Shown in pieces: positions 11,201 through 26,910 of a DNA stretch of 64,000 bases. The notes under the pieces are model-generated. The model did not search any database. It was not told where the DNA came from and was given only the letters and a program-made list of their open reading frames with translations. Made by a program: the position numbers and the translations under genes. Source of the DNA: Elusimicrobiota bacterium (GTDB taxonomy: Bacteria > Elusimicrobiota > Elusimicrobia > 2-02-FULL-39-32); assembly GCA_021730935.1 (NCBI GenBank), contig JAKFYJ010000021.1, forward strand, positions 22,451 through 86,450, read 5' to 3'. Within the stretch, counting starts at the first letter, position 1, and every line of letters starts with the position of its first letter.

Positions 11201-14200
11201 TCAGAGCTTCTGCATTTAAGGAAGATCATGCAGGCCTCTTCAATGAGGATTTTTTCATCTACGAAGAGGACAGCGAATGGTGTGTCAGGGCTCAAAAAGC
11301 CGGAGGGAGGACACTTTTCGTACCGGTCGCGGACAAAGTGTACCACGTCGGGAACCAAAGCTTCAATGGGGGCAGAATATCTTCCGAAAGAAATTATTAC
11401 ATGATCCGGAATCGGCTCCTGTCGATGCGCATCCATGGCCAATTTTTACAGCCGCTCCATCTCCTGAGGCTTTTCAGAGCCTTGGCGATAATGAGTTATA
11501 AAACATTGATTCAAGGGAAAAGTCTCCGGGCTTTCGGAGCATTCCTTCTTGGCATTTGGGATGGAAGCCTTGGCAGAGGCGGGATAGGACGCACTTTTCA
11601 AAATCAAGCGTCCAATCAGAACCCCCGCGCCGCGAAAGTTTCCTGGGGGAAAAGATATGAGAAGGTTCTTTTTCCCTCAAATAATACTGCTTCACAAAAT
11701 GTGCCAAGCCTCCGCGATAAAATTATTCAGCGTATCGCATCCAATGTCCCGCTGCTAATGTCCCTGCCGATTAACTTCATTATGATTGCGATCGTCGGAA
11801 CAAGTGCAACACAGTTGTCCGGATTATTTCTGTCGGAAGGCCACTTTTGGCTTGCGGTCTTTATTTGGGGATATTCCATTTCAATAATTTTACTCATCTG
11901 GATCTGGTCGTTCAGAGTCGTTTATAGCATTTTAGGGTTTTTGATCGAAAAATTCATGCATTTCGATTCCAAGCATTTGGCCTATACCAAACCAAATTTG
12001 CCTCAAAACGCGATTTATCCTTCTCTCACGGCTATCATTCCGGTTTATGATGAGCCCTGGGAAGCGATTTTAACATCTCTCAACTCGGCCATTTCCGCTC
12101 GTGAACATTTTGAACACGCATCAAATATTGTTGTCGCGGATGACTACATCGGTGTTTTGGCCGGGGGAGATGTTGCTGAGTTCGTTCGAAGCGCAAAATC
12201 AAAGGCCATACAAAATGTTCCCCTGAGCGGTGCGGAAACCGAAGTCCTCCGGCGGTTAAACTTTTATGATAGCCACGGCATTGGGGTCATCGCGCAGCCT
12301 GCCCATCAGGCCCATTTTGCTGAAGGAACCTACATTCGCGAAGGGCAATTTCCAAAGGCCCACAATCTCAACGTGCTTCATCAGGCCTCGGATTTGATCG
12401 AGGATTATATGAAAGGGGGAATGACCTATTCCGAAGCTTTGAAACGGTTAATCAAAAATGGACAAGTCCACGGATTCACCACGTTTAAATATGCCTATAT
12501 TTCCGAAGTGCAATCCATTTGCACCGGAGATGTTTTGTTATTCTTAGATAATGATTCCTTTGTCCCTCAAGCGGCGCATTCCCCCACCTTGGCTCAGTTT
12601 GTGTTGGAAGAAAATCTGGCCTACACTCAGAATGAAACCGTCATTCATAACGGGGATCAATCGCTTTTCGCGAGGCTGCTGGCCAGTAACGTGGATGCAA
12701 ATAGATTTCTAAACGGATTCAAAGCGCGATTTGGAATCGTGACCTTTTCTGGGCACAATGGGTACATTCGTAAAAGCGTTCTCAGGCAGGTGGGGTACTG
12801 GCCGGTGGACAGAATTTCCGAAGACCATGTGGTAACATATCGCATCATTAACGAGAGAGACCCCGTTGGTAACCAATATTACGGCAAATTTATTGCTTAT
12901 CCGGGGCTGGAATTTGGAGAATCGGCTCCGGAAGACTTCACCACATTTGCCGGCAGGGAATATAAATTTATCATGGGCGACCTGCAAACGTTCTTAAACC
13001 CAATAGCGAACTGGATGAGAGAGGGGATTTTTTCCAGGGACACGCGTTCTTATCTTTCCTCTCATCTGACTCTAACCCAGAGGCATGATAACCTTTTCAG
13101 GCAATCCCGCCCGCTTTTGTCTATTTTAAATTTTGTGACTCTAATCAATTTTCTTATATTCCCAATCATTGTGCCGGAGTCATTGTTGTCGATAGTTCAA
13201 AACGGGGCGACGATCTCGGTTGTTTCCAATCCGGTGAATTTGCGAATTGTGCCCTACAGCGTATTTACAATCATCTTCTTATCCATCCTGCTAATTGACT
13301 TGATCCCCATTTGCGTTTCTCTTATCAGGACCTCGGTCACCCTTAAAAATGATCTTAAGGAAGAGGAGGAAATATTTTATTGGACCAGAATTATTTTTAC
13401 AGCCCTTATCGCCGATACCTTGATCATGAAAATGATCGTGCACATCGCCACCCTTCCCTGGCAGCTCAAGGGAATCGCGACGCACCTTTTGTCCAGAGAG
13501 ATCAAGATCGGAAGCACCAAAAATCTGACGGGGGATTGGAAAGCCCAAGCCGTCAAGATCTTGCGCGCCAACAAACTCAATATTCCTTTTTCAATTTTCA
13601 TCGGCATCTTGTTCACCTTGTGGCTGCGACATGTTTTTCCGCTGATTCAAACAACAAATCTCCTGACCCGCGTCATCTTATTCGTTTTCATTTTTGAACA
13701 TTCCATCCGGGTCGTGGGGCCCCTCCTTGGCCCATTTGTGTTAAATCCCTCCTCAGGTAAAAAAGCCATCCATCTTATGAATGATGTTAAAGAATTTTCA
13801 AGAAACAAATTTAACCTTGAAGCTCGTCCCAGGCGCCTTTCCCTTTATTTTATCGGGACGGCCGCCGTGGCGGGAGGCATCCTTCTTCGGTTCTGGAATC
13901 TCAATTATTTGGGACCATGGATGGACGAAGCCATGTACATACTCGCTGGCAAAAACATGGGCAACCCTGCGCTCAATTATGGCTGGATCAGCGGATGGAA
14001 ATATCTTTATCCCGCAGTCACTTACTTTGGATACGATCTGGCCGGTTCCGTGGTCGGGTCCAGAATTGTCAATGGGCTCCTCGGGTTGGGGACGGCGTTT
14101 TTCGCTTTCCTGTTTTCCAGGAAAGTGATTTCTGAAATTTTTAGCGCGGACAATGCTAAGACGAACGATGCGAGAGCCCTGGCGAGCTTGGTGGTTCTTA

Positions 14201-16935
14201 TGGCCTCGGGGCCCTTGATGATCATCAGCCGTTTGGCAACGTATGACGGTTTGGCCTTTTTCTTTTTTGCGGTTTCCGTTTATCTGATCCAGAATAATTC
14301 AAAATCTAAAAACCCTTCGGCTTTTTTATTTTTAGGTGCCATCGCATTTGTGCTGGCCTTTCTTTCAAAATATTTTCTGGTCATTTTTACGCCCTTCATC
14401 TTAACCTATGCCCTCATTCAGACGAAAGACAGAACTCGGTGGACAAAATATTTCCTGCTTCCTTTTCTCTTCCCCTTGGCTGTCTTTTTTGCCTTCTTTG
14501 GGAATGACTTTGCCGCGGGACTGCAATATGCCGCCAAACAAAATAAGTTGCAGTCTTGGGGCGTCTGGGGGATCACAAGGGAAACGGCCATCAACGGCGG
14601 AGTCCCATTTCTGCTTTCCATTCTGGGATTATTGCGGGTGCCAAAAGAGAAAAGAATGCTGGCTTTTTGGCCCATCGGAGGGGCCATGCTGGTATATGTC
14701 TATCACGTGCTCGATCTTCATGTTCAGGGCCTTCCCAAAGTCCTCAGTGGCTCAGTGATTCTTTTGGCTCCGCTGGCCGGCGTTGGGCTTATAAAACTGA
14801 TGTCCTTGGCCATTCACCGGCGCAAACAAGTGAACTGGCTCGCGAGGTTGTCGATTTTGGCCATCTTAATTCGCGCTTCCATTTGGACTTTGCCCGGGCA
14901 TCCCATTGCGGGTTCACGGACTGAGTTTTGGCAGGACAACTATACGGTTGCGGAAGTAATTAAATATTATGCGCAGGACGTCCCGGAGCCTTGGATCCAT
15001 TCTTCCCGAGCGCATGAGCTTGCGCTATTACTGCCCTCTCTGGAGTCCTCCATCAATCCGGTGAAAAAAACCGGCGTGGAGAGTAATCCTTATTTTTCGA
15101 GCATGTATGTCACTCCCGAGCCGGAATTTTTTGAGAATATCAAGAACCGGAAGTACGCCATCGTCCATTTATATCCTGAATATTGGAATCCCGCTTGGTC
15201 CGAATATCCAGATTTAGTCAGAAACACTCTGGAATTGCTCAAACAAAATGGCTATGTCCATGCTTATTATGATGACCGGCCGAACATCACCTCTTTCGGA
15301 ACGGAACTTTCCCCGTCGCGTTCCCACATTTATGTCCGGGATGATATTTTTAATAAATCCGGCACCGTTACAAGCAAAGACGGCCATCTTCTTTTCCCCG
15401 GGAAATCTCCGGGCGCCATGGGCATGTGGCAGAAATTTGGAATAAATAATCTCGTAAAAATCGCGCACCTTGAAAATATCATCCTCGGAATCTTGGCCAT
15501 GGGCGCAACCGTATTTCTTATTCACCTGGGTCTCATGCCTCAAGCTCCGCCCGCAAATTTCGCAGATGCTGGCCTTCTTCTTTTTAAAATCTTTTCAGTT
15601 TCAGGATTCCTTTACATTTTTCTTCGTCACCTCCTTCTCAAAGCGCATTATTATTTGGGCGTCGCTCAACCGATCGGCCCGCCCGTCATGCGCGATTGGG
15701 AGGAGGCCGTGCAATCCACAAGAACAGCGTCCTTGAGTCTCGTCTCCGTTCCCTTCATTGTCGCGGGAATGATTTTTATGTCTTGGGCAGGCCCTCTCGC
15801 GATCCTCACCGGTATTGCGCTCTCCGGCATGGGTGTCTCTTTGGGAGGCCGCTTGCATGCGCGAAGAAATGACCTTGCCCAATCCTGGGCTATGCCGCGG
15901 AGTCTTATTGAAATCCGAATGGAACGCGCTTTCAGTGAAATAAAAAAATTCCAAATTGATGATCACAACGCTCAAGTCAGGCATGCTCTGAAACTGGTCG
16001 CACTCTGGAGACTGTTCAATGGGGAAGCTCTGGACCAAACTTTGAGCGCGGACCGCATCGATCAGACGGAACTCGAAAGAGTAATCAGATTTCATTCCAC
16101 CAGAGAAATGGCTTCCATCGCGGGTCACATGGACGCCGTGGCGAAAGGCGTTTCTGCATGGGACTTCTTCTATCATGGAGGCATGCAAGAGGACTTGAGC
16201 GCGGATGCTTTAATTTTCGAAGAAGCCATTAACGCTTATCAAATCATGCGGTATCATGCGCGGCCGGGTCTGCGATTGAGTGAAACACAAATCGCAAGTG
16301 CAAAAGATATTTGGGAACTTGGACGTATTTCAGCTTCCGCGCTCAAAACCTGTGAAGTTATCGATGTTTTAAACAGCGAAAAATTAAAGCGAACGGACGC
16401 CTATGCTTCAGAAAATCAAGTTCTGCTTCATAAAGTGCACCGCCTCTCAAATCAGGAGATTTCTATATTGGTCCGCAGCATCAAAAGGGAAAATGCTTCC
16501 GGCAATCTCAATCAGGTCACTTTTTTGCTGGATGCGGGAACGCGAAACATATCCCGAAGCGAGCTAAAACAGCTTCTCGGGAAATATGGCGTTACGGAAA
16601 ATATGTTTGACGGTGCCTTCAGAGGCGACTTCAAGAGCCACATGATTACAGAGGAAGAAATAGCCCAGCGCCAGAATGTGGACCCTTCCATCAAGCGCGA
16701 CACGGAGATGATTTATGAAATCGCCGCAGGAAAAGCCGGCGTTTTGGCTGGCCGCCCCATCCGAGGCAAAATATCCCTGGACATTTATACCGATGAAATG
16801 ATTTACAGCGAAAGCTGGGGAGAAAAATTATCCATCAGAATTCTGTTCATCGTCTCGCAAACCCAGGTCGTTGTTATGAGTCAATGCATCGATCAAGCCC
16901 TCCGCGAAGACGCTCTCGTTGCTTTGCAGCAATAA
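8275..16935 (+). CDS. giant 2886-aa polytopic multi-glycosyltransferase fusion (ChaN/Tiki-like domain + GT2 + cellulose-synthase-like GT2 + PMT/ArnT-like GT-C + C-terminal domain)
   Basis: Single uninterrupted 8661-nt ORF. Motifs: VVHIQDAHGN...AGGFHTDG; VAIVIVNF...VVDNDS...FDNDTF...YEEDSEWCVR; IIPVYDEP...VVADDY...FLDNDSF...ISEDHVVTYRI; LRFWNLNYLGPWMDEAMYILAG, with more than 25 predicted transmembrane helices. Confidence 0.9.
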   Translation: MDKSLNWNWVRCTSIGICLVFVYVHVVFSAIEPAKSFWEQRKESAQKLRRGNVPLREGNVTLLAKLPEVDLNLLPQSIPIPQSLGREFKMEEHKISVPNLPITSKYSIIPSWVQSLSGKNVSIKDLYLPPSWKPGDFMVVHIQDAHGNVEAQKNIAKAIEFLSQGQNKTPSPNLGEGQGEDPHLIVGIEGARGAFNFAAYRAFSDNDITKQIADYFLQGSFITGPEYAGMTSEQPLEFWGVEDESHYLSHVQAYKDSVAFQKEARAMIELLMQQLEQTKTKSLNPELCRLDNQITLHRKGKTGLGEHLKMLDQINFGRDSGPAIKQFLNAYQIEASLDFKKVESERTSLTRALAENLPKQELQNLVKASLSYRLGNLAHGAFYQYMKDLCIAYGIKLSAWPEMDKYIRYVLLSDKISAEQLLAEVGDVEKKEVEGLIKTDKEREVIRLSRYLTLIEKLVNFQLSPAEWKEYEMLGHPASADFANVIKFIQPFERFNRAAIARNDVLVGNLLQKSGGRLAVLVAGGFHTDGMMGILKNKKIAYAVLTPRLGKAEGTGSEYLDVFKRDETPIEKLFTGERITLASQSRMAPGMGETMPDTLTVESQFIGFQILLKLAKTLKAEGYKTPSERRAAVDQIAEKVRAQVLGEDGVKFLTVRDIETSSQDDRSIAVHYTYELNGVKKQSTVDFALLEKEAPLENVSGIPADVGPNKILMTPHMPAVRWGSQLTTLRSSGAIGFLMSLSVMDILSPHGIAIGAGLGLGMIFWLWLSDLLSRRKNPSANHLIVQPVVREPGTLPKVAIVIVNFKGGADPRGTVHIKNLLASLGAMTREKFNYEVIVVDNDSTPDSLGAIREGLADFPVSEVIENPANLGAAAARNQAIRNALGRGNDYIMTFDNDTFIEPGVVDQMVDFAEKSPQDVLAITPRIYNAKDKDKLWSVGRKLAKFPYLRLDARGSQEDKFTEPSEVDFLTTAAALFRASAFKEDHAGLFNEDFFIYEEDSEWCVRAQKAGGRTLFVPVADKVYHVGNQSFNGGRISSERNYYMIRNRLLSMRIHGQFLQPLHLLRLFRALAIMSYKTLIQGKSLRAFGAFLLGIWDGSLGRGGIGRTFQNQASNQNPRAAKVSWGKRYEKVLFPSNNTASQNVPSLRDKIIQRIASNVPLLMSLPINFIMIAIVGTSATQLSGLFLSEGHFWLAVFIWGYSISIILLIWIWSFRVVYSILGFLIEKFMHFDSKHLAYTKPNLPQNAIYPSLTAIIPVYDEPWEAILTSLNSAISAREHFEHASNIVVADDYIGVLAGGDVAEFVRSAKSKAIQNVPLSGAETEVLRRLNFYDSHGIGVIAQPAHQAHFAEGTYIREGQFPKAHNLNVLHQASDLIEDYMKGGMTYSEALKRLIKNGQVHGFTTFKYAYISEVQSICTGDVLLFLDNDSFVPQAAHSPTLAQFVLEENLAYTQNETVIHNGDQSLFARLLASNVDANRFLNGFKARFGIVTFSGHNGYIRKSVLRQVGYWPVDRISEDHVVTYRIINERDPVGNQYYGKFIAYPGLEFGESAPEDFTTFAGREYKFIMGDLQTFLNPIANWMREGIFSRDTRSYLSSHLTLTQRHDNLFRQSRPLLSILNFVTLINFLIFPIIVPESLLSIVQNGATISVVSNPVNLRIVPYSVFTIIFLSILLIDLIPICVSLIRTSVTLKNDLKEEEEIFYWTRIIFTALIADTLIMKMIVHIATLPWQLKGIATHLLSREIKIGSTKNLTGDWKAQAVKILRANKLNIPFSIFIGILFTLWLRHVFPLIQTTNLLTRVILFVFIFEHSIRVVGPLLGPFVLNPSSGKKAIHLMNDVKEFSRNKFNLEARPRRLSLYFIGTAAVAGGILLRFWNLNYLGPWMDEAMYILAGKNMGNPALNYGWISGWKYLYPAVTYFGYDLAGSVVGSRIVNGLLGLGTAFFAFLFSRKVISEIFSADNAKTNDARALASLVVLMASGPLMIISRLATYDGLAFFFFAVSVYLIQNNSKSKNPSAFLFLGAIAFVLAFLSKYFLVIFTPFILTYALIQTKDRTRWTKYFLLPFLFPLAVFFAFFGNDFAAGLQYAAKQNKLQSWGVWGITRETAINGGVPFLLSILGLLRVPKEKRMLAFWPIGGAMLVYVYHVLDLHVQGLPKVLSGSVILLAPLAGVGLIKLMSLAIHRRKQVNWLARLSILAILIRASIWTLPGHPIAGSRTEFWQDNYTVAEVIKYYAQDVPEPWIHSSRAHELALLLPSLESSINPVKKTGVESNPYFSSMYVTPEPEFFENIKNRKYAIVHLYPEYWNPAWSEYPDLVRNTLELLKQNGYVHAYYDDRPNITSFGTELSPSRSHIYVRDDIFNKSGTVTSKDGHLLFPGKSPGAMGMWQKFGINNLVKIAHLENIILGILAMGATVFLIHLGLMPQAPPANFADAGLLLFKIFSVSGFLYIFLRHLLLKAHYYLGVAQPIGPPVMRDWEEAVQSTRTASLSLVSVPFIVAGMIFMSWAGPLAILTGIALSGMGVSLGGRLHARRNDLAQSWAMPRSLIEIRMERAFSEIKKFQIDDHNAQVRHALKLVALWRLFNGEALDQTLSADRIDQTELERVIRFHSTREMASIAGHMDAVAKGVSAWDFFYHGGMQEDLSADALIFEEAINAYQIMRYHARPGLRLSETQIASAKDIWELGRISASALKTCEVIDVLNSEKLKRTDAYASENQVLLHKVHRLSNQEISILVRSIKRENASGNLNQVTFLLDAGTRNISRSELKQLLGKYGVTENMFDGAFRGDFKSHMITEEEIAQRQNVDPSIKRDTEMIYEIAAGKAGVLAGRPIRGKISLDIYTDEMIYSESWGEKLSIRILFIVSQTQVVVMSQCIDQALREDALVALQQ

Positions 16936-17042
16936 AAAAATAACTCACGCCTAAAAACTTTCCTACACACGTTGACATAATTCCCTGATTCCGCGTCCGC
17001 GCTGAACTTTTTATACTGGTCTCCATGAAAGGAGACAAGTTT

Positions 17043-18659
17043 ATGAAAAGATATTTTTTCGCCGCAATTTTCCTTATTGTCTGCGCCGCAGTTCATGCTC
17101 AGCCTTCGGTCCTCATCAATGAGGTCGCCAGCGAAGAGCCCACGCCGCCCGGAGACTGGATCGAGTTTTATGTCTCAAGTTTCACGGACCTGAGCGGCTG
17201 GAAAGTTTTTGAGCAGAACGCGCTCGTGAAAACATTTCCTTCCTTGTCATTGTCCGCGGGAACCTATTTCATCCTCAAATTCAACTCCTCTTCGCCTGAC
17301 GAAACCCCTGCCTCCGGCGACGCGAACGGCAACGGAATTCTGGATCTCTATACGGCGGACACGGGCCTGACAGGGACGTCCAATGCAGTTTCCTTAAGAG
17401 ATGCGAAAGGGCTCGTCATGGACGCGGTCGTTTTCTCAGACAGCGCGAGCTGGACCAGCGCTCAGCAATCCGCCTTCGACATGCTGGTGTCCACGGGGCA
17501 GTGGCAGGGAACCGTGAACGGCGGTCTCAAAAACTTTTCTGATTCCGTGAATATCGCGGGAGGCGTCGGGCCCGGCAATTCAATCGGCAGGAACCCGGAC
17601 GCGCTCGACACGAACCACTTTTCGGACTGGCGACATATTAAAGGAACCCAAACCAAAGGCTCTCAAAATCCCGCCTCAGTCGCCTGCCCAAACAGCCCGC
17701 CGTTCGAGGGGACGATCTCGGAGGTCGCCCCCTCCCTGCCCATTTCCGCCGGAGGCGATTTTGTGGAGATTTTCGTCAACAACCCGATCAATGTTTGCGG
17801 ATCAAAAATATATGAAGGCGCGGGACTCATCAAAACACTCCCTTCCGTGACTCCCAATGCCGGACCTTTCGGGTCCTATATTATTCTTCACGCAGGAGCA
17901 AAAATATCTCCTTCCAATCCTGACGAAACCGATGTCACAGGTGACATGAACGGCAACGGCTCTGTCGATCTTTATTCGGACGAGTCCAGTCCCGGCATCA
18001 CCGGGAGCGCGGACAACGCCATTCTGCTGGAATCTTCCGACGGAAACCTCATTGATTTTATGGGGTTCTCCGACAAATTGCTTTTTTATTCCGCCGTTCT
18101 TCAGGGGCAATATAACCGCGCGGTTTCTCAGGGCCTCTGGGTCCCGGAATGCAGCGGTGAAGAGGACTGCTACGGCGCCGGCTCCGTGGCCTGGTCCAAC
18201 TCCACGACAAAATCAATTTCCAAGAAAATTTCAGAAGGAGGTTTTCCGATGAGTTCTCGGCCTTCCAGTCCCGACGACTGGGAGATATCGGCGCCCACTC
18301 CCGGGAAAACATCAAGGACCGCAAAACAAGAAACGGCGCCTGCCAAAAACGCCATCCGCGTGAGCCAGTCCCCTTTTTCTCCGATTGGCGACGGGCCTTT
18401 CAGAGAAGCCTTGTTTGATTGCCCGTCGGACCCCGGCTCAAAGATCACGCTCAAGCTTTATGATGTTCAGGGCCGGCTCATCCGCACGATCGCGGACCGC
18501 GTTTCCGCAGACGATGCCCAGGTTTTTTCGTGGGACGGCAGGAATGCCGGAGGCGATTTGGTTCCCGTCGGCATCTATGTCGTCTGGTTTGAAATCAAGC
18601 AGTCAAACGGCGAGCTCAGCCATAACGCCGAAACGGTCGTCGTCGGGAGACAGCTATGA
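17043..18659 (+). CDS. secreted protein with two lamin-tail domains and a C-terminal FlgD-Ig/T9SS-type sorting domain
   Basis: AAGGAG Shine-Dalgarno 8 nt before ATG 17043, with signal peptide MKRYFFAAIFLIVCAAVHA. Lamin-tail-domain motifs LINEV...DWIEFYV..DLSGW and ISEV...DFVEIFV. C-terminal KITLKLYDVQGRLIRTI...GIYVVWFEI matches por_Secre_tail/FlgD-Ig style domains. Confidence 0.75.
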   Translation: MKRYFFAAIFLIVCAAVHAQPSVLINEVASEEPTPPGDWIEFYVSSFTDLSGWKVFEQNALVKTFPSLSLSAGTYFILKFNSSSPDETPASGDANGNGILDLYTADTGLTGTSNAVSLRDAKGLVMDAVVFSDSASWTSAQQSAFDMLVSTGQWQGTVNGGLKNFSDSVNIAGGVGPGNSIGRNPDALDTNHFSDWRHIKGTQTKGSQNPASVACPNSPPFEGTISEVAPSLPISAGGDFVEIFVNNPINVCGSKIYEGAGLIKTLPSVTPNAGPFGSYIILHAGAKISPSNPDETDVTGDMNGNGSVDLYSDESSPGITGSADNAILLESSDGNLIDFMGFSDKLLFYSAVLQGQYNRAVSQGLWVPECSGEEDCYGAGSVAWSNSTTKSISKKISEGGFPMSSRPSSPDDWEISAPTPGKTSRTAKQETAPAKNAIRVSQSPFSPIGDGPFREALFDCPSDPGSKITLKLYDVQGRLIRTIADRVSADDAQVFSWDGRNAGGDLVPVGIYVVWFEIKQSNGELSHNAETVVVGRQL

Positions 18660-19756
18660 AACGCCTGGGATATGTTGCCGCGCTTCTTTTGATTTTCTTT
18701 GCCGCCGGTGCCCGCGCCGCGTTTGAGCCGAAAGAAATCGGTCCCCGGGCCATCGGGTTTTCCGGCGCTTATTCCGCCGCCGCAACGGACGCCTATGCTC
18801 CCTTTTGGAACCCGGGCGCTCTCGGCCGGATCAAAGCCAGAGAAGCCGCCTCATTTTATAGCCGCGCTTTTGCCCTGGGAGATTTGGCTCAAACAGGAAT
18901 CGCCTATGCCGACAAGACGCGTTTTGGGAACATGGCGTTCGGCTTCACGCAGTTCGGCTCAAAAACCTATCTGGAACAGGAAATGATTTATACCCACGCC
19001 TATCAAATCACGCCGAGACTCAGCGCGGGATATAACCTCAAGATGCTTCTTCTCCGCATCGAAAATTTCGGGTCTTCCGTGAAATTTGCGATGGACCTCG
19101 GACTTGAAGGCAAAGTCTCTGAGAGGCTGGACCTCTCTCTGTCAGGGAAAAATATCAACCGTCCCGCGTTCGGTTCGCAGAAGGAAGAGATCTCCTCGAT
19201 CTGGACTTCCGGGTTCGTGTTCAAAGTCATGCCGGGACTTCTTTTCGCGTGCGATGTGGAAGGTTTGGGAACGCCCTCCGCCCGCCTGAAATCCGGAATG
19301 GAAGTGGACTTGAGCCCCGCTTTCGCTTTGCGCGGCGGATTGCAGAGCGGGCCTTCCCGTTTTTCCGGCGGGTTCCGCGCCAGGCACGGCAACCTGTCTC
19401 TGGATTACGCCTATCAGCATCATCCTTTTCTCCCCGGATCCCACCACATGGGCCTCAGCTACAGCTGGGGAGATCCCGAAAGCTTTGCGGGGTTTCTCAA
19501 CATAAAAGCAGAAAAGAAGCCGGCAAAAAAATCCGCGGCCAAAATTTATAAGTTCAATGAAAAAATGAACCTCATGACCGCCTCAAAGGAAGAGCTTCTT
19601 CAAATTCCGGGAATCGGCGAATTCACCGCCGAGAAACTGATTGCCTATCGCGACCAGGTCGGGCTCAAAACCATCGACGATGTTTTATATATCCCGGGCA
19701 TGACCAAAAGAATTTTCCTGCTCATCAAAGACACCTGTTCCGTGGAGAAACCGTGA
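18656..19756 (+). CDS. PorV/PorQ-like outer-membrane beta-barrel fused to a C-terminal ComEA-type helix-hairpin-helix domain
   Basis: Signal peptide, then a PorV-type N-terminal motif (AIGFSGAYSAAATDAYAPFWNPGALG) and beta-strand periodicity. The C-terminus has LLQIPGIGEFTAEKLIAYRDQVGLKTIDDVLYIPGM, a ComEA-like HhH. The ATG overlaps the upstream TGA (ATGA). Confidence 0.6.
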   Translation: MKRLGYVAALLLIFFAAGARAAFEPKEIGPRAIGFSGAYSAAATDAYAPFWNPGALGRIKAREAASFYSRAFALGDLAQTGIAYADKTRFGNMAFGFTQFGSKTYLEQEMIYTHAYQITPRLSAGYNLKMLLLRIENFGSSVKFAMDLGLEGKVSERLDLSLSGKNINRPAFGSQKEEISSIWTSGFVFKVMPGLLFACDVEGLGTPSARLKSGMEVDLSPAFALRGGLQSGPSRFSGGFRARHGNLSLDYAYQHHPFLPGSHHMGLSYSWGDPESFAGFLNIKAEKKPAKKSAAKIYKFNEKMNLMTASKEELLQIPGIGEFTAEKLIAYRDQVGLKTIDDVLYIPGMTKRIFLLIKDTCSVEKP

Positions 19757-20328
19757 GGGCTTTTCTTTTCCCTCTCATCCTCATTTGTCTCGCGGTTCCG
19801 GCGCGGGTCCAGGCTTCGGAGCCTGATTGGGATGACCCTGAGAGTGAAGCGGACGCTCTGCCCGTTTCCAGAGAACTGACCTATGAAACTTTCGGCCGGT
19901 CCTCGGGGTTTCGGAGCCACAAATGGCTTCTGTCTCTGGCCCAAAAAAAAGGAATGAAGACGGGCGTTTATCTCATCCGGGACGAATACACAACTTCCCC
20001 AATCGAGTCTCACATGCTCGGCTTTTATGGAAGCCGAAATTTCAGGCGGGTGGGGGTCCGGGGAAGCTATGCCCTCAAAGACAAATCGCTCGCGGGGCCT
20101 CAGGGAAAAAATTTTGTTTCCGGAGGCCTGCGCGTGAGTCCTTTTCCGAATCTTGACCTGGTCGCGGATTATGACCGCATCCAGGACGAATATCTGACGG
20201 GGGAAGACGACAGCGAGCGCGAAACTTTTTCAGCCGGGTTCAGCCTGCGGGCGGCCAAAGCGTTCCGCATGAAAGTGGTCTATTCCGGAGAAAACCGGAT
20301 GAGAGCCAAAGTCAGCTATCGCTGGTGA
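19753..20328 (+). CDS. outer-membrane beta-barrel protein (hypothetical)
   Basis: GTG start overlapping the upstream TGA, a signal peptide, and a C-terminal ...KVSYRW aromatic terminus. Confidence 0.45.
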   Translation: MRAFLFPLILICLAVPARVQASEPDWDDPESEADALPVSRELTYETFGRSSGFRSHKWLLSLAQKKGMKTGVYLIRDEYTTSPIESHMLGFYGSRNFRRVGVRGSYALKDKSLAGPQGKNFVSGGLRVSPFPNLDLVADYDRIQDEYLTGEDDSERETFSAGFSLRAAKAFRMKVVYSGENRMRAKVSYRW

Positions 20329-20361: not shown

Positions 20362-20811
20362 ATGAGATCAAGGTTGCCGTTATTCCTCTCTGTCCTGGCC
20401 CTTGTGTCCGCCTGCGCGCCGTCCCAGAAATATGTTTTTTATCAGTATACTCCGCTGGAAGGCGTCAAAAGCAAATCTCTTGACCGCCTGAAATGGGAAA
20501 ATGAAGTTCAGCCCGGCGACGACATGTCCAAAGCCCTGATCCTCCAAATGGACAATGCGAGCACGCACCTGGTCCAGATCAAGGGCGCGGAAAAAAACCA
20601 TATCCACCAATATCACGATTCCACTGTTTTTATCCAATCGGGGACAGGCCGGATGTATCTGGGAAAAACTTCGTTTCAGGTGGGCCCGGGCGCGATCATT
20701 TTCATTCCCCAGGGTCTCGAACATCACTATGTGAACGGAGGAGCGGAGCCGACCAGCGCGATCGCGGTCTATTCTCCTTCTTTCGACGGAAAAGATATTA
20801 TTTACAAATAG
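20362..20811 (+). CDS. cupin-domain lipoprotein
   Basis: Lipobox LALVSAC plus a cupin motif GAIIFIPQGLEHHYVN. Confidence 0.6.
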   Translation: MRSRLPLFLSVLALVSACAPSQKYVFYQYTPLEGVKSKSLDRLKWENEVQPGDDMSKALILQMDNASTHLVQIKGAEKNHIHQYHDSTVFIQSGTGRMYLGKTSFQVGPGAIIFIPQGLEHHYVNGGAEPTSAIAVYSPSFDGKDIIYK

Positions 20812-20831
20812 GGTCGATTCATGAATCGACC
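20812..20831. terminator. perfect 20-bp palindrome between convergent genes (candidate bidirectional terminator hairpin)
   Basis: GGTCGATTCATGAATCGACC equals its own reverse complement. It lies exactly between the cupin gene stop (20811) and the nuclease gene stop (20843). Confidence 0.45.
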
Positions 20832-20842
20832 TTTCACGGTCT

Positions 20843-21343
20843 CTATTTGTTCTGTTCGGGGGGCTTTTTGATGTCTTTGAAAATGTCTTCCGGTTTAAGG
20901 TCCGAAAGTTTTTTGCGGAAATCATCCACTTCTTCTTTCGAGATGGGTTTGAGGAGCGGCTCGCATTGCTCGAACACAGAGTCGTCCACGAAAAGCGGGG
21001 AAGAAGACCGGAGGGCGAGCGCGATGGAGTCGGAAGGTCGGGCGTCGATTTCCTGAACCGTTCCGTCCTGCTCAACGAAGATGGACGCGTAAAACGTGCT
21101 TTCTTTGAGTTCCGTGATGACGACTTTGGTGATTTTTGCGTTCACAGCTTTCACGAAACTGACCATGAGGTCATGGGTCATGGGCCGGGGCAGATGAACG
21201 TTGTTGAGGTGCATGGCGATTGAGTTTCCCTCTGCGGGCCCGATCCAGATGGGGATCAGACGCGGGCCGTCCATCTCTTCAAGGACGATGACATATTGCG
21301 ATCCCAAAGCCACGAGGGAATATAAATTGACGGGTTTGAGCAT
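20843..21343 (-). CDS. bifunctional nuclease (DUF151) family protein
   Basis: 166 aa with ...IWIGPAEGNSIA...RPMTHDLM...ARPSDSIALAL motifs typical of the DUF151 nuclease family. Confidence 0.7.
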   Translation of the reverse strand: MLKPVNLYSLVALGSQYVIVLEEMDGPRLIPIWIGPAEGNSIAMHLNNVHLPRPMTHDLMVSFVKAVNAKITKVVITELKESTFYASIFVEQDGTVQEIDARPSDSIALALRSSSPLFVDDSVFEQCEPLLKPISKEEVDDFRKKLSDLKPEDIFKDIKKPPEQNK

Positions 21344-21364: not shown

Positions 21365-22063
21365 ATGAATAAAAGATTCAAGTGTATCCTTTTTGATCTG
21401 GACGGCACGCTTTTGTCGACGGGCGGAGCGGGAATCCGCGCGCTGGACAGGGCGTTTTTCGAGCTTCATGGGCTGGAAAAATCGCTGGACAGGATTGACC
21501 CCGCGGGCAAGACGGACCCGGCCATCATCCGTGAAATTTTCAGACTCAAACTGGGAAGGCCCTGCGCCGCGGACGAGATGGAAGCCGTCCAGCAAAGATA
21601 TCTTCAGCACCTCCCCGTGGAATGCCGCACCGCGGACGACTATAAAATTATGGAAGGCATCCCAAAGATCCTTGAGCACATTCAATCTCTGGACCTTGCT
21701 GTCGGCCTCGGGACGGGAAACATTGAAAGCGGGGCCCGAAAAAAGCTGGACCGGAGCGGCCTCAACAAATATTTCCCTTTCGGCGGGTTCGGCTCTGATT
21801 CCGAAGACCGCCCGGAACTCCTCAAAATCGGCCACGCCAAGGCTTGCGTTCATTCAGGGCGCGACATCCCCAAAGAAGACGTCTTCATCATCGGCGACAC
21901 GCACCTCGACATCTCCGCGGCCCGCAAGGCGGGGTTCAAGGTGATCGCGGTCGCCACGGGAAATTTCACCGTCGATTTTTTGAAATCGCACAATCCGGAT
22001 CACGTGCTGCCCAACTTTGAGAACCTGGAGGAATTTGTTGGCATCATCCTTAATGGGAATTAG
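21365..22063 (+). CDS. HAD-superfamily hydrolase (phosphoglycolate phosphatase-like)
   Basis: Motif I ILFDLDGTLL and a downstream IIGDTHLD motif. Confidence 0.8.
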   Translation: MNKRFKCILFDLDGTLLSTGGAGIRALDRAFFELHGLEKSLDRIDPAGKTDPAIIREIFRLKLGRPCAADEMEAVQQRYLQHLPVECRTADDYKIMEGIPKILEHIQSLDLAVGLGTGNIESGARKKLDRSGLNKYFPFGGFGSDSEDRPELLKIGHAKACVHSGRDIPKEDVFIIGDTHLDISAARKAGFKVIAVATGNFTVDFLKSHNPDHVLPNFENLEEFVGIILNGN

Positions 22064-23192
22064 GAAGTTCTCCGCAGTCGTTCTCGCCGTTGTTTGTCTT
22101 GCAAGTGTGTCCGTCCCGCTCTCCGCCGTTCAGCCTCCCGCCGTCAGCACCGCGCTTGTTCCTGTCCCGGACTCCGCCGTCCCCGTGTTTAAAGACGACG
22201 GAGATTTGAAAACATTGGGAAATGCCGTCCAACACAGCCTTCAATATTATTCCGGTCTTCCGTCCACCGCCTCCGTGATGTTCGGCGCCGATGCCGCGTC
22301 CCCCAAAGAACTCGAGTCCGGCCTGCTGGCTTTTCTCAGTTTTTTGAGGACGCATCCCTCCCTGGACGCAGTGAACGCCTTCATCAAAACTCATTTTGAG
22401 GTTTATCGCTCCGCAGGTTCTGACGGCTTGGGCCGGGTCACTTTTTCGGCCTATTATGAGCACCGCATGAAAGCGGCTCTTTCTCCGTCGGAAAAGTTCC
22501 GATACCCCATCTATTCCCGCCCGAAAGACCTGGTCTCCGAAAATGGTTCGTTTGGACGCCTTGACGGAACTCGACTTCTCCCTTATTATTCAAGGGAAGA
22601 GATTGATTCCAAAGGAATGCTCAAAGGGCGGGGTCTGGAAATCGCGTGGGCCGACAACCCCATCGATATCCTTCTCCTCCAGATTCAAGGTTCAGGGTGG
22701 CTGGAAGTTTTGGGATCCACCGAGACTCTGCACATCCGCTATGCCGCGGACAACGGTTTGCCCTATCGGTCGGTGGGGCAATATTTGATCGAGTCCGGCA
22801 AACTGCCGAGACTGAATTTTTCCAGGGCCGTCATGACGGATTATTTGAACAGGCTGTCCAAAGAAGCCAGACAGGAGATGCTGAATCAGAATCCCAGATA
22901 CATTTTTTTCGAGATTGTTTCGTCCACAAACCCGACGCGAGGTTCGCTCATGGTCCCTCTGACGGCGGGCCGGAGCGTGGCCAGCGATCCCAAAATTTAT
23001 CCGCCCGGCGCTCTCTCCTGGATCAAAATGAACGGCATCGAGAGATTTGTCCTCAATCAGGATGAAGGCGGCGCGATCAAGGGCCCGTCGAGGATTGATT
23101 ATTTTGCCGGAGGCGGGAAAGAAGCGGAAAAGCTGGCCCAGTCCGTCTGGTCCGGCGGAGAGCTTTATTTCTTCAGGTCCAAACGCGAATGA
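22053..23192 (+). CDS. mltA: membrane-bound lytic murein transglycosylase A
   Basis: Signal peptide and a C-terminal DEGGAIKGPSRIDYFAGGG 3D-domain motif. Start taken at ATG 22053, which gives a better signal peptide and overlaps the HAD gene end by 11 nt. Confidence 0.7.
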   Translation: MGIRKFSAVVLAVVCLASVSVPLSAVQPPAVSTALVPVPDSAVPVFKDDGDLKTLGNAVQHSLQYYSGLPSTASVMFGADAASPKELESGLLAFLSFLRTHPSLDAVNAFIKTHFEVYRSAGSDGLGRVTFSAYYEHRMKAALSPSEKFRYPIYSRPKDLVSENGSFGRLDGTRLLPYYSREEIDSKGMLKGRGLEIAWADNPIDILLLQIQGSGWLEVLGSTETLHIRYAADNGLPYRSVGQYLIESGKLPRLNFSRAVMTDYLNRLSKEARQEMLNQNPRYIFFEIVSSTNPTRGSLMVPLTAGRSVASDPKIYPPGALSWIKMNGIERFVLNQDEGGAIKGPSRIDYFAGGGKEAEKLAQSVWSGGELYFFRSKRE

Positions 23193-25375
23193 AATTAAAA
23201 CTGTTTCACAAGATCGCTCTCTTCTCCATTCTCCTGGCCACCCTTCCCGCGGCCATCGTCGGCTGGCAAACCGCGACCCTGAACCGCGAACATCTCGAAA
23301 ACAATATTCTGGAACTCCACACCAACCTCGCCAATTCTCTGGCCCGCAGGATCGATTTTTATCTGGACGGCGTGACCGGAAAGCTCCGCGCCCTCATTGA
23401 AAGCCTCCGCATCCAGGGCATTTCGTCTCCGGCCTCCATTCAGGCCTTCCTCGATTCCAACCATGAGTTCGTGTCCTTTTCTTTTGTGAACGCTTCCGGC
23501 AGGGAAATCATGAAGACCGTCAACGAAATTTACGGCGAAGGCCAGAGTTTTGTCTCGCATGCGGACGATCCTCTTTTTAAAACGTATGCCGCGCAGGAGG
23601 CGGGGGGCGTGATCGATCCCAAGTTTATGCTGTACTTCGAAAAGGGAGAACCCCGGCTTAAAATTTTTTATCCCTATGACCCTTCGAGCATCAAGCGGGG
23701 CTCCCTCATGATCGTGATTTCTCTCAGGGAACTTTGGGACGACATTTTAAGCGAAGGGGCCGGCGTGGGCGGCGGAGGCAGGCACATTTTCATTGCGGAC
23801 CAGTTCGGAAATTTGATTGCCCATTCCGATCCCTCAACCATGAAAAAGATTCTGGAGTCCGGACCGATTCCAGCGCCGGACCATCCGCTCGTCAGAGAAG
23901 CCCTTCAGGCCAGGACGATTGGGTCAAAGGAGTTCAAGGATTCCATGGGGCAGGACATGGTCGGATCCTATGCTTTGGTGAAGTGGACCGGCTGGGTGTC
24001 GGCAATTCAGCAGCAGAAGAAAGGCGCCTTCGCTCCGATTTATCAAACCCGCACCCGGGCCTGGATCGTCATCATCCTCTCCATCCTGCTCGCAGGCGTC
24101 TCGGCCATATACCTGAGCAAGGGCCTTTCACGGCCGATCTTTGAAATCATCGAGGCGGCGCGCAAGGTGGCCGAAAACAATTTTGATCAGCAGGTGAAAA
24201 TTTCTTCCGACGATGAGCTGGGAAACCTGGCCGAGACCTTCAATGAAATGGTCTGGGCGCTCCGGAGTTATCACGATCTTCAGGTGGACCGGATCATCGA
24301 GGAGAAGACGAAAACGGAGTCCGTCATCTTTTCAATCGCGGACGGCCTGATCATGACGGATCACACGGGGAAGATCCAGATCATGAATCAGAGGGCCGCT
24401 CATGTCTTTGACTTGGATGGAGACAGGAGCAAACAGGCAAACCCGTGGAATTGGGTCGGGAAGAACATATTGGATGTCATCAAGGACGATTCGGTTCATG
24501 AAGTCCTCAAAAAAGCGCTCATGGAGAGCGGGTCGCAAACCAAGGAAATAACCATGACGCACGGGGAAGATGTCCGGCATTACCAGATGTCTTCCGAGAG
24601 CGTGGTGAACCCCAAAACAGGAGCCAATCTTGGAGTGGTCACGGTCGTGCACGATGTGACGCTGGAACGGGAGCTCGACAAAATGAAGGAGACCTTCCTG
24701 CATTCCATAACGCACGATTTGAGAAACCCGATGACATCAATCCAGGGATTCGTCAAAATCCTCATCGAGCAGAAATCCGGACCCTTGAACGATGCCCAGA
24801 AATCCATGCTCGCAACGATGGAGCGGGCCAGCATGCGGTTCCTTTCCATGATCAACGACATTTTGGACATCGCCAAGGTGGAAGCCGGGAAGATGGAAAT
24901 TGAGGTCAAAAAGTTTGATCTGAACCCCATGATTGAATCGCTTCACAGTCTTTATCAGCCCATGGCGGACAAAAGGCAGATTCAGTTCGACGTTTCGTGG
25001 AATGTTTCTCAAAAACCTTTTTCAATGACGGGAGACGAGAATCAGCTTGAGCGGGTGACGGGCAACCTGATCGCCAATGCCCTCAAATTCACCCCGATGA
25101 ACGGGAAAATAAATTTAAGAGTGGAAGAATTTCCGGATAAAATACAAATATCAGTGACGGACAGCGGGCCCGGGATTCCCGAGAGCCACAGGAAATCCAT
25201 TTTTGATAAATTTCAACAGCTGGGTCCCGGCAAACAAAAAGGCGGAACGGGTCTGGGCCTCACGATCTCCAAACATTTCATTGAGCTTCACAAGGGGCAA
25301 ATTTGGGTTGAGGCCGGCGACGGCGGGCAAGGGTCCAAGTTCGCGTTTTGGATTCCCAGGAACCTCGCCGTATGA
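23189..25375 (+). CDS. sensor histidine kinase (periplasmic sensor, HAMP, PAS, HisKA, HATPase_c)
   Basis: H-box HDLRNPMTSIQGF, N/G boxes (GNLIANALKFT, GTGLGLTISK), a HAMP segment and two transmembrane helices. No response regulator is adjacent. Confidence 0.9.
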   Translation: MKLKLFHKIALFSILLATLPAAIVGWQTATLNREHLENNILELHTNLANSLARRIDFYLDGVTGKLRALIESLRIQGISSPASIQAFLDSNHEFVSFSFVNASGREIMKTVNEIYGEGQSFVSHADDPLFKTYAAQEAGGVIDPKFMLYFEKGEPRLKIFYPYDPSSIKRGSLMIVISLRELWDDILSEGAGVGGGGRHIFIADQFGNLIAHSDPSTMKKILESGPIPAPDHPLVREALQARTIGSKEFKDSMGQDMVGSYALVKWTGWVSAIQQQKKGAFAPIYQTRTRAWIVIILSILLAGVSAIYLSKGLSRPIFEIIEAARKVAENNFDQQVKISSDDELGNLAETFNEMVWALRSYHDLQVDRIIEEKTKTESVIFSIADGLIMTDHTGKIQIMNQRAAHVFDLDGDRSKQANPWNWVGKNILDVIKDDSVHEVLKKALMESGSQTKEITMTHGEDVRHYQMSSESVVNPKTGANLGVVTVVHDVTLERELDKMKETFLHSITHDLRNPMTSIQGFVKILIEQKSGPLNDAQKSMLATMERASMRFLSMINDILDIAKVEAGKMEIEVKKFDLNPMIESLHSLYQPMADKRQIQFDVSWNVSQKPFSMTGDENQLERVTGNLIANALKFTPMNGKINLRVEEFPDKIQISVTDSGPGIPESHRKSIFDKFQQLGPGKQKGGTGLGLTISKHFIELHKGQIWVEAGDGGQGSKFAFWIPRNLAV

Positions 25376-26910
25376 TCAAAGCTCTTTTTATTTTCGCCGC
25401 CCTGAGCGCGTGCTTTTATCAGACGGCGTCCGCGAAGGAAGTCCTCCAGGAAATCACCGTCAAAGACGGAGACACGATCTGGGGGATCGCCAATGTTTAT
25501 CTCAAAGATCCCAAAAAATGGCCTGAAATTCTCAAATATAATCAGATCCCATTAAGCGATCCCACGGCGACTCTCCCGGGAATGAAACTCAAGGTTCCGG
25601 TTCAGCTCATCCGCGAGGAACTTCGCAAAGCTGACATCATCTTTCTTCTGAACGATGTGAGATACCGCAAACGAAACGAATCAGAATGGAGAAAGGCCGT
25701 GAAAGACGCGGAGCTGTTGAATGATTATGGTCTGCGCACCCTGGAAGACAGTCAGGTCCATGTCAGGTTTTACAGCGGCGACATCCTCAAGCTGGACCAA
25801 AATTCTCTCGTCGTCCTGCGGCCCGAACTGAAAGTGGAGGAAGTGAACCTCCTTGCCGGAACTCTCCAGGCGGGGCGGGTGAAACTTGTCACTCAGACCG
25901 CTCAGGTCACTCCGCTCACGAAAGACACGCTTTATAAAGCGCGCCTCAGGATCGACAAAGGACTGATCGTCCAGGTGGAACGCGGGAGCACGGAAGTCAT
26001 GGGGACCCTTTCCGGCAAAAAAGTGGTCGTCGGCGCGGATCAGGCCACGATCGCTCATTTCAAGGACGGCCCCATTGAACCGGTCACTGTCGGAAAAACA
26101 TCAGGCATGGAAACTGTGGATTTTGACGCTTCAAACCGGGTGATTGTCCCTGCGGGACACGCCAACATCACTTTTCCTGACAAGGCGCCCACGATTCCGG
26201 TGAAGGTCCCCAATTTGCCGAACTTTGATATGATGGATTTTGACGAGTCCGGCAAAGCGAAAGTTCCGAGCCTTTATGGCAATGAGGCAAAAAAAAGACA
26301 AGGGGGATCTCCTGACATCGCTCCCGTTGCAGGGTATCGTCCGGGTTCCGCGGGCAACATGAAAATCAGCGGAGTGGACGGTTCAGGAAGCCGCGCTCAA
26401 AAGAAAGAAGTGAAAGTCCGAAAATTTTTCCGCATCCAGTTTTCGCTTGAGCCCTCCTTTTCCCGTCCAGCGCTGGATAAAAAGAATCCCATCGGGGTTT
26501 CGGACCCTCTCGGGGACAATAACGAATATGGACTCACCGACGGGATTTATTTCCGGAGGATTTCATATCAGGACAATGAAGGGAACGAAACGGATTTCAT
26601 CGATCTCCCGAAACTCGAGATCGACAACCTGCCTCCCAGATTAATGCTTTCGAAACCCGCGGAAAAATTCACGACGCGGAAACAGTTCGTGCAGGTTGAA
26701 GGGCAGACGGAACCTCAGTGTTTCGTGCGGGTGAACGATTATCAGGTTCCGATCAAACAGGACGCGAAGATCAGCTGGTCTGTGCTTTTGAAGGAAGGCG
26801 AAAACAAGATTTCCATAACGGTGACGGACAAGAAGAAAAGAGTGACGCGGATGGAGAGGACCGTGATCAAACTGGGAGGGTCCGCTCCGGCGGGTGAAGA
26901 AGAAAACTAG
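25372..26910 (+). CDS. LysM domain protein with FecR-like domain, secreted
   Basis: ATG 25372 overlaps the kinase's TGA (ATGA). Signal peptide, then a LysM motif (ITVKDGDTIWGIANVY...LKVP). Confidence 0.6.
   Translation: MIKALFIFAALSACFYQTASAKEVLQEITVKDGDTIWGIANVYLKDPKKWPEILKYNQIPLSDPTATLPGMKLKVPVQLIREELRKADIIFLLNDVRYRKRNESEWRKAVKDAELLNDYGLRTLEDSQVHVRFYSGDILKLDQNSLVVLRPELKVEEVNLLAGTLQAGRVKLVTQTAQVTPLTKDTLYKARLRIDKGLIVQVERGSTEVMGTLSGKKVVVGADQATIAHFKDGPIEPVTVGKTSGMETVDFDASNRVIVPAGHANITFPDKAPTIPVKVPNLPNFDMMDFDESGKAKVPSLYGNEAKKRQGGSPDIAPVAGYRPGSAGNMKISGVDGSGSRAQKKEVKVRKFFRIQFSLEPSFSRPALDKKNPIGVSDPLGDNNEYGLTDGIYFRRISYQDNEGNETDFIDLPKLEIDNLPPRLMLSKPAEKFTTRKQFVQVEGQTEPQCFVRVNDYQVPIKQDAKISWSVLLKEGENKISITVTDKKKRVTRMERTVIKLGGSAPAGEEEN

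Follow-up and report, generated by a model that had tools for sequence, protein, structure and literature searches.

Among the attachment pairs of the secretion system of type IX (T9SS), PorU docks on the outer-membrane barrel PorV and PorZ docks on PorQ. Adjacent genes for a cargo whose C-terminal domain (CTD) is of type B and for its cognate barrel are documented in this system (PMC9143113, PMC12618676), and two further sources report the T9SS within the range of the Bacteroidota and the Fibrobacteres-Chlorobi-Bacteroidetes (FCB) group (PMC7463736, PMC12398890). In the Bacteroidota a pilus-independent outer-membrane DNA system is made up of a protein at the surface, a barrel and, in the periplasm, a helix-hairpin-helix (HhH) protein (PMC8459023), and DdbCD of B. 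thetaiotaomicron is another of their pilus-independent systems for DNA at the outer membrane (PMC12478041). Lamin-tail domains (LTDs) occur in extracellular nucleases and ComEC-like proteins, with examples in ExeM (PMC6085458), in marine DNA degraders (PMC8289736) and in the haloarchaeal ComA and Hvo_1477 (PMC5118699). Here we describe, and compare with these systems, an operon found in a stretch of 64,000 nucleotides of an Elusimicrobiota bacterium (assembly GCA_021730935.1, contig JAKFYJ010000021.1, positions 22,451 to 86,450), which we call the window. It codes for a secreted LTD protein with a putative sorting or docking domain at its C-terminus, a small barrel that resembles PorV at the superfamily level and carries a ComEA-type HhH domain, and a third product that is a candidate second outer-membrane protein.

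The three open reading frames (ORFs) lie on the forward strand of the window, ORF1 at 17043-18659 (538 aa), ORF2 at 18656-19756 (366 aa) and ORF3 at 19753-20328 (191 aa). An initial annotation of this DNA had already described three genes joined by ATGA and GTGA overlaps, and this was confirmed. The same-strand ORFs overlap by 4 nt at 18656 (ATGA, ORF1/ORF2) and at 19753 (GTGA, ORF2/ORF3), their junctions read CAGCTATGA and AACCGTGAGG, respectively, and a Shine-Dalgarno-like GGGAGA or GGAGAA is found 5' of each overlapping start. The start given for ORF1 at 17043 is preferred over the alternative upstream start at 17025 because the Shine-Dalgarno sequence AAAGGAG (17028-17034) is located 7 nt upstream of it. 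This sequence belongs to the operon's conserved leader or promoter region (16945-17042, forward strand) in which no sigma-70 promoter consensus above chance was found by scanning. All three proteins have predicted cleavable N-terminal signal peptides, VHA/QP in ORF1, ARA/AF in ORF2 and VQA/SE in ORF3 (the slash marks the cleavage site). A probable fourth gene follows ORF3 after 34 nt (20362-20811, forward strand) and codes for a cupin of 149 aa (Cupin_2, E 7e-12) with the lipoprotein-type signal LVSA/C.

Relatives were retrieved by anchoring on a conserved 282-aa membrane protein encoded upstream (window 7321-8169), which provided ten loci from GTDB. All ten come from metagenome-assembled genomes (MAGs) of Elusimicrobia, and these MAGs are mostly from groundwater. 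Synteny was then established by tblastn on these anchored loci together with loci obtained by exact-protein look-ups (loci are given by L numbers). The common order was a Pyr_redox gene on the opposite strand, the gene of the 282-aa protein, the LTD-CTD gene, the barrel gene, a third gene and, on contigs that are long enough, a gene of the bifunctional nuclease (BFN) family. This order was found in L005/L009, L006, L010, L011, L013, L014, L015, L016 and L002/L018. The tight junctions are also kept in relatives. L006, L010 and L014 have overlaps of 4 nt, and at the other loci the genes overlap differently or are separated by short gaps. In L006 and L005 the leader aligns with the sequence immediately 5' of the LTD gene. 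Furthermore, the cupin gene is located directly 3' of the ORF3 orthologue in L005 (with a 4-nt overlap) and in L010. ORF1, ORF2, ORF3 and the gene of the cupin lipoprotein form an autonomous, conserved envelope operon of a groundwater Elusimicrobia lineage, with export signals in all of its products.

ORF2 is composed of the signal peptide, a small barrel, a lysine-rich linker predicted to be disordered (aa 272-300) and a ComEA-type (HhH)2 domain. The barrel (18719-19471, forward strand, aa 22-272) starts with a hatch-like segment (aa 22-60) with an NPG/NPA motif, continues with 14 predicted strands (aa 63-270) and ends in LSYSW. An AlphaFold2 (AF2) model of ORF2 obtained with 14 homologues had a predicted local distance difference test score (pLDDT) of 85.1 and 14 strands, and the modelled protein is a 14-strand FadL-like barrel with an N-terminal hatch, as in the PorV/PorQ family. 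When this model was compared to PDB by Foldseek the top-ranked matches were the FadL/CymD/TodX family (E 5e-9 to 1e-6), and the best TM-score, 0.57, was reached by PorV in the SprA complex (8gl6_F, root-mean-square deviation 5.5). The profile of the barrel family also found PorV as its best PDB match (6h3i_F, E 3.2e-4), followed by TbuX and TodX, all of them through the hatch region. On the family model for PorV/PorQ, NF033709, ORF2 scores 35.4 bits versus a cut-off of 90; the PorV2 and PorQ models are weaker and NF033710 gave no match. The relatives of ORF2 score 39-88 bits on NF033709, all of them under 90, the members that consist of a barrel only being at 39-57. There was no match of ORF2 to PorP/SprF (TIGR03519) at E <= 0.1, and one distant relative matches this model with E 0.0028 and 17 bits versus a cut-off of 90.6. 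Toluene_X (PF03349) did not match ORF2 either, and matched the relative P0090 below cut-off (E 4e-4). We therefore call ORF2 PorV-like at the superfamily level only. To this extent, by fold and by profile, the initial annotation of ORF2 as PorV-like stands, and by the curated model it does not.

The HhH domain had escaped the initial annotation, and its presence alters the functional reading of the barrel. It covers aa 302-358 (19559-19729, forward strand; HHH_3, PF12836, 35.3 bits vs 27), is modelled with pLDDT of 83-90, and when searched alone its best PDB matches were EEPD1 and the ComEA chains 8dss, 8dfk and 2duy. On the curated ComEA models it reaches 36.4 bits in TIGR01259 (E 4e-9, cut-off 152) and 31.1 bits in TIGR00426 (cut-off 53.1). 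As the domain follows the last strand of a barrel with an even number of strands, in which both termini are periplasmic, it should be located in the periplasm.

ORF1 starts with the signal peptide (aa 1-19), followed by two LTDs, a short basic linker and an Ig-like C-terminal domain. LTD 1 (17094-17435, forward strand) has 40.3 bits on PF00932 versus a cut-off of 34.3. LTD 2 (17715-18158, forward strand) is a repeat of the first module, as BLASTP of aa 1-215 against aa 216-440 gave 38% identity over 148 aa (E 9e-24), and the repeat is also visible as a tblastn self-match. Orthologues of ORF1, with 31-64% identity, have LTD scores of 62-91 bits. The Ig-like domain takes up the last ~105 aa (18342-18656, forward strand), with the pattern QSPFSPxGDG...WDGxxxxG...GxY...VVVGRxL, and is by its similarities a putative sorting or docking domain. 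Its match to FlgD_ig is borderline (27.1 bits vs a cut-off of 27). It stays below the cut-offs of the type A CTD (TIGR04183, 14 bits vs 23) and of the type B CTD (CHU_C, PF13585, 15 bits vs 27, the relatives having about 14-25 bits). When the C-terminal domains of eight orthologues were scanned singly, the PorU CTD was matched by all eight (best E 2.9e-8), type A Por_Secre_tail by seven, below threshold (best E 2.9e-5), the PorZ CTD by six and the type B model TIGR04131 by one (E 0.073). The profile of the domain found FlgD (E 2e-6), PorU (E 0.01) and PorZ/PG93 (E 0.04) in PDB. The closest relatives of this domain are the CTDs of PorU and PorZ, and FlgD, mostly below the curated cut-offs. The secreted protein with two LTDs described initially is confirmed by the signal peptide, the PF00932 score and the repeat, and the sorting-type CTD is borderline only.

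Mature ORF1 is acidic, with a pI of 4.4 and a net charge of -26. The initial annotation also described Ser/Thr/Pro-rich linkers in this protein, of which one survives in part. The stretch NSSSPDETPASGDANGNG is not a linker. It sits within the LTD repeat, being the conserved structured loop PDETxxxGDxNGNGxxDLY, which is also present in LTD2 and in the orthologues. These loops (17280-17340 and 17900-17960), lost from LTD1 in L005, look like the Ca-binding loops of the DxNxDG type. The sole true linker is the stretch of ~30 aa located 5' of the C-terminal domain, and its Ser/Thr/Pro content is modest, 0.34 in a sample that runs into the start of the domain versus 0.245 in the whole of ORF1.

The LTD-CTD gene adjoins the barrel gene in every Elusimicrobia relative with enough flank. 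The C-terminal domain is constant in all the relatives and the number of LTDs varies from one to three, with two in the window, L005, L006, L013 and L002 and one in L010, L014, L015 and L016. Locus L017 contains, upstream of the gene of the 282-aa protein, a paralogous cargo of 2253 aa with four fn3 domains, three LTDs and a CHU_C-like CTD, with its own barrel-HhH gene next to it, and L012 has a pair similar to this one. In outline, the conserved adjacency and the paralogous pair bear out that part of the initial proposal in which an LTD protein with a T9SS-like CTD is paired with its own barrel. The position of the HhH domain differs among loci. Loci with a small third gene, namely those of the window clade and L017 (third gene of 248 aa), have it on the barrel, and in several loci with a barrel only (L002, L008, a JGI contig and L023) the next protein, of 649-720 aa, has an N-terminal HHH_3; at L014 and L015/L016 no HhH was detectable. 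A hidden Markov model built from the third-gene proteins of Fermentibacteria-like contigs (L019, L020, L007 and L022) has a match in L008_712 that lies just behind the HhH (E 6e-22). Since this domain migrates between adjacent genes, it would be expected to act together with the barrel and the second outer-membrane protein.

Two other observations were made at these junctions. A gene annotated as "23S rRNA intervening-sequence protein" (PF05635, a small four-helix protein), from the family of the Avd proteins of diversity-generating retroelements, is located between the LTD cargo and barrel genes in three separate lineages (L002, 9628-10011; L013, 1091-1429, reverse strand; L017, 7140-~7500), and in L017 it is in frame with the barrel-HhH gene with no intervening stop codon. 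An apparent LTD-CTD/barrel "fusion" of 534 aa in L011 was rejected as an assembly or masking artefact, in which ambiguous bases (X) at ~13090-13125 join two frames.

The barrel family is large. A word-index search that returned 14 proteins gave the impression of a very rare family, which was overturned by an exhaustive profile search. This search found 24,644 cluster representatives (at 50% identity) with E <= 1e-3 and 2,996 with E <= 1e-30. About 31 of its top 150 members have at least 340 aa, and each of the nine long members tested carries one or two C-terminal ComEA-type domains, some of them above the TIGR00426 cut-off. A profile restricted to the barrel found 53 proteins, and in this search the barrel-HhH fusions appeared in Elusimicrobia and in about 40 proteins of Aegiribacteria/Fermentibacteria. 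ComEA fusions make up a sizeable fraction of the family. Public annotation labels its members as hypothetical, "helix-hairpin-helix" or "ComEA family" proteins, ignoring the barrel, and no curated model captures the barrel family or the module. A look-up of protein clusters likewise returned no names for the proteins of the window. In the literature searched we found no description of the LTD-CTD/barrel/ComEA module or of the barrel-ComEA fusion, and nothing relevant on PorV with ComEA, on Elusimicrobia with type IX secretion or on Fermentibacteria with competence.

In the Fermentibacteria-like contigs L019, L020/L021 and L024 the barrel gene, with or without the HhH, overlaps or precedes a gene for a protein of 493-498 aa (the contigs L007 and L022 end after the second gene). 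A ComEB-like deoxycytidylate deaminase (148 bits vs a cut-off of 219) is encoded nearby in the three of them, and a RecJ-like DHH protein (159 bits in L019) in L019 and L020/L021. On the opposite strand, L019 and L024 have genes for an LTD protein, for a secreted metallo-beta-lactamase (MBL) domain of the ComEC/Rec2 type (120 bits in L019, model positions 450-661), and for an exported strand-rich protein of 294-296 aa. In L020/L021 the LTD gene is kept and the genes of the MBL and of the 294-296-aa protein are not. At its C-terminus the secreted MBL protein resembles Por_Secre_tail (E 1e-3).

In L019 (11140-13761, reverse strand) and L024 (5342-7900, reverse strand) a small LTD gene is followed by the gene of the secreted MBL protein, which is a stand-alone ComEC-type domain, and the gene of the 294-296-aa protein, which has a GNPAL motif, overlaps the MBL gene. 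The latter two may be a second pair of CTD cargo and barrel, with the nuclease as cargo.

ORF3 has no Pfam or NCBIfam match, and the word-index search found a single non-self homologue; orthologues are present in L005, L006 and L010. The protein is rich in strands and ends in VSYRW (VxYxW), like the beta-signal of the barrel assembly machinery, and it is probably an outer-membrane protein. Its AF2 model, obtained from two sequences, is unusable (pLDDT 34.6), and the barrel described for it initially is a candidate fold only. The product of the third gene varies widely in size, from 191 aa in the window clade to 248, 318, 465-471, about 525 and 649 aa elsewhere, and in most of these proteins an aromatic residue is found at the very end or among the three final positions. 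Comparison of ORF3 with the larger third-gene proteins gave an hhalign probability of 5.6%, and hmmsearch in a small database gave E 3.5e-5 to the protein of L011. ORF3 and the large proteins are positional equivalents only. The large barrels of the relatives could serve as conduits for the export of ORF1, a role for which ORF3 is too small.

Directly upstream of the operon leader, a gene of the window (8275-16935, forward strand) codes for a giant glycosyltransferase (GT) of 2886 aa. It has two GT2 domains and a PMT_2 match with 26.1 bits, which is exactly the cut-off; no Pfam domain is present in its first ~750 aa or its last ~700 aa. In nine relatives the GT is absent at this site, between the gene of the 282-aa protein and the LTD gene. 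One of them is L006, whose 282-aa protein is 90% identical and whose ORF1 and ORF2 products are 64% identical to those of the window, and where a conserved region of ~95 bp directly follows the stop of the 282-aa gene and precedes the LTD gene. The same region is found in the window directly after the GT stop. The GC content of the GT segment is 46-49% versus 51-55% in its flanks, and no close relative of the GT was found in a scan of metagenomes. By these features the GT is a recent, lineage-specific insertion of ~8.8 kb and low GC between the gene of the 282-aa protein and the leader of the operon. Because nine relatives lack it, the conserved leader abuts its stop and its GC deviates, the operon is very probably independent of the giant GT, and since the GT is inserted upstream of the operon's own leader, adjacency provides no evidence for a relation of enzyme and substrate. 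The co-occurrence in relatives on which the initial annotation had relied for a test is seen for the LTD protein and the barrel, and at this site not for the GT. A false lead is removed in this way, as the GT and the LTD operon have become neighbours only through the recent insertion. The 282-aa protein itself is a multi-pass membrane protein that belongs to no Pfam family and ends in a conserved SMPVRSDVQVSEH motif. Together with the BFN gene it is among the most conserved of the neighbourhood, with 55-90% identity across Elusimicrobia MAGs versus 31-64% in the operon.

From these components we propose the following function. ORF1 would cross the inner membrane by Sec, and its CTD would dock on the ORF2 barrel in the manner of the pairs PorU-PorV, PorZ-PorQ and SprB-SprF, the docking holding the LTD modules at the cell surface. 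On the periplasmic side the HhH domain, tethered by the lysine-rich linker, would bind double-stranded DNA like ComEA. The complex would then be an outer-membrane station that captures, takes up or processes extracellular DNA, for transformation or for nutrient use. Cognate docking of the LTD-CTD cargo on the barrel is probable in our opinion. A DNA function of the complex, as read from its domains, is possible, and we hold it with clearly less than even confidence; the complete model, in which the barrel protein provides both surface docking for the LTD protein and periplasmic binding of DNA, is advanced tentatively, at just short of even confidence.

Several points weigh against this proposal. 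Binding of double-stranded DNA by the HhH of ORF2 is a prediction, both curated ComEA models stay below cut-off for this protein, and the domain of the window is near neutral and has PGMT rather than GIG in its second hairpin. In addition, HhH folds can have roles other than DNA binding, and PsbU and GspK were among the weak matches. Direct DNA binding by the LTDs of ORF1 is unlikely, unless bridged by cations, because the protein is so acidic. All the curated models for PorV and for CTDs are below threshold for the proteins of the window. The hhalign probability given above does not demonstrate that ORF3, a small protein, is homologous to the large barrels encoded by the third gene in the relatives. 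Finally, the neighbourhood evidence from Fermentibacteria comes from three distinct genomes (L019, L020/L021 and L024), and no competence or type IV pilus genes were found among the larger ORFs scanned in the 64-kb window.

A rather unlikely alternative, which several of these points would suit, is that the complex serves surface display or adhesion only, the HhH being structural in the periplasm and, for example, tethering both outer-membrane proteins together or to another envelope component. The acidic cargo with its Ca-binding-like DxNGNGxxD loops, the giant fn3/LTD adhesin-like protein that is the paralogous cargo, the protein-binding roles of HhH folds such as the weak matches PsbU and GspK and the partly degenerate HhH of the window could all be accommodated in this way. 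However, the domain is specifically of the ComEA type and has been kept, at times duplicated, across thousands of barrels, and in other phyla the module is found among ComEB-, RecJ- and ComEC-MBL-like genes. The genome might also have a genuine T9SS, ORF2 being a PorV/PorQ paralogue that shuttles ORF1 from a Sov/SprA translocon encoded elsewhere. The CTD does resemble type A, PorU and PorZ CTDs, the closest solved relative of the barrel by profile is PorV, and the scan covered 64 kb of the genome. Nevertheless, the curated T9SS models are all below cut-off, no core T9SS gene (sov/sprA, porK, porL, porM or porN) was found among the larger ORFs scanned in these 64 kb, and the barrel falls short of the length of PorV by about 100 aa and has a ComEA domain. 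We know of no T9SS component with such a domain. Elusimicrobia is moreover outside the Bacteroidota/FCB range reported in PMC7463736 and PMC12398890. Membership of the operon or of the organism in the T9SS is not established, and we hold this explanation to be improbable.

Two more explanations concern single components. ORF2 could be an importer of hydrophobic compounds of the FadL type, with incidental gene neighbours, as the lead of CymD, FadL and TodX among the Foldseek matches and the NPA/NPG motif in the hatch would allow. Yet the barrel, with about 250 aa, is far below the size of FadL (about 420 aa), has no Toluene_X match, keeps its 4-nt overlap or adjacency with the LTD-CTD gene in the relatives, and carries a ComEA fusion that import would leave unexplained, all of which makes it a highly unlikely reading. 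The remaining one is that of the initial annotation, in which the LTD protein would be O-glycosylated on Ser/Thr/Pro linkers by the upstream enzyme, of the GT-C type, and then exported with its PorV partner. The two genes are indeed neighbours on the same strand in this genome, PMT_2 is matched at its cut-off and one short linker is modestly rich in Ser/Thr/Pro. This explanation fails on most other counts, and we consider it very improbable. Nine relatives keep the operon without the GT at the locus, the GT is inserted upstream of the conserved leader with a deviant GC and has no relatives in the metagenome scan, and what was taken for the main "linker" belongs to the LTD as a structured loop. 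Besides, PMT_2 is a family broader than the protein mannosyltransferases that also covers ArnT-like lipid and glycan transferases.

As to the surroundings of the operon, a palindromic hairpin GGTCGATTCATGAATCGACC (20812-20831, without strand) between the convergent cupin and BFN genes is its likely, if weakly evidenced, transcriptional end; terminator-like sites in the region were not more numerous than in shuffled sequences. The BFN/DUF151 bifunctional-nuclease gene (20843-21343, reverse strand) has 74-93% identity in the relatives with long enough contigs, and its functional link to the operon is doubtful because the protein has no signal peptide. Further envelope genes nearby code for a lytic transglycosylase of the MltA type (22017-23192, forward strand) and for a secreted protein with LysM and Glucodextran_B (25348-26910, forward strand). 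Between these two is a gene of 728 aa (23189-25375) whose product looks histidine kinase-like.

What is defined here is a conserved module made up of an LTD protein with a docking CTD, a small PorV-like barrel, a ComEA-type HhH and a second outer-membrane protein. The large unannotated family points either to an outer-membrane path for DNA that is new or to a use of CTD-barrel docking beyond the T9SS. A DNA function, if true, would bear on how DNA passes the outer membrane in bacteria without a competence pilus, and on whether the logic of CTD docking on barrels goes back further and reaches wider than the T9SS. More speculatively, the PorV-like barrel/ComEA protein and its partner outer-membrane barrel might be an apparatus of a widespread, so far undescribed kind that captures or takes up DNA at the outer membrane without a pilus, to which LTD proteins and ComEC-type nucleases are attached via T9SS-like CTDs, and which is spread over uncultured phyla including Elusimicrobia, Fermentibacteria and Bacteroidota-like ones. 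In that case CTD-on-barrel docking would exist outside the T9SS and would perhaps predate it. We regard this apparatus as unlikely on present data.

The comparison with the known systems shows both sides. Like ComEA, ORF2 has an (HhH)2 domain of the HHH_3/ComEA type with a probable periplasmic location. In the operon this domain is fused to or adjoins an outer-membrane barrel, whereas ComEA is soluble or has an anchor in the inner membrane. The combination of surface protein, barrel and periplasmic HhH is, by component logic, that of RA0C_RS04920/04915/02645 of R. anatipestifer and of DdbCD (PMC8459023, PMC12478041), although the barrel here is small and PorV-like and those are TonB-dependent-like/CarboxypepD_reg. 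With FadL, TodX and CymD, its top Foldseek matches, ORF2 shares the 14-strand barrel and the N-terminal hatch with an NPA-type motif, whereas its barrel is about 40% smaller and differs in gene context and fusion partner. The resemblance to SprB-SprF and PG1035-PorP (PMC9143113, PMC12618676) is one of organization, since a cargo gene is followed by its own barrel, with one barrel per cargo, and the cargo of the operon varies in size around a constant C-terminal domain; unlike in those pairs, the CTD is not of type B and ORF2 has no PorP/SprF match. As in PorU-PorV and PorZ-PorQ, a surface protein with an Ig-like CTD, matched to PorU in eight of eight orthologues and to PorZ in six of eight, stands beside a 14-strand FadL-like barrel. 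The differences are the Elusimicrobia origin, a barrel of about 250 aa versus about 370 that is below the family cut-off, the C-terminal ComEA domain, and surroundings in which no sortase or anionic lipopolysaccharide context was seen. Although it fails every curated threshold (PorV, PorQ, PorP/SprF and type A and B CTDs), the module would, by analogy, work most like the CTD/barrel pairs of the T9SS.

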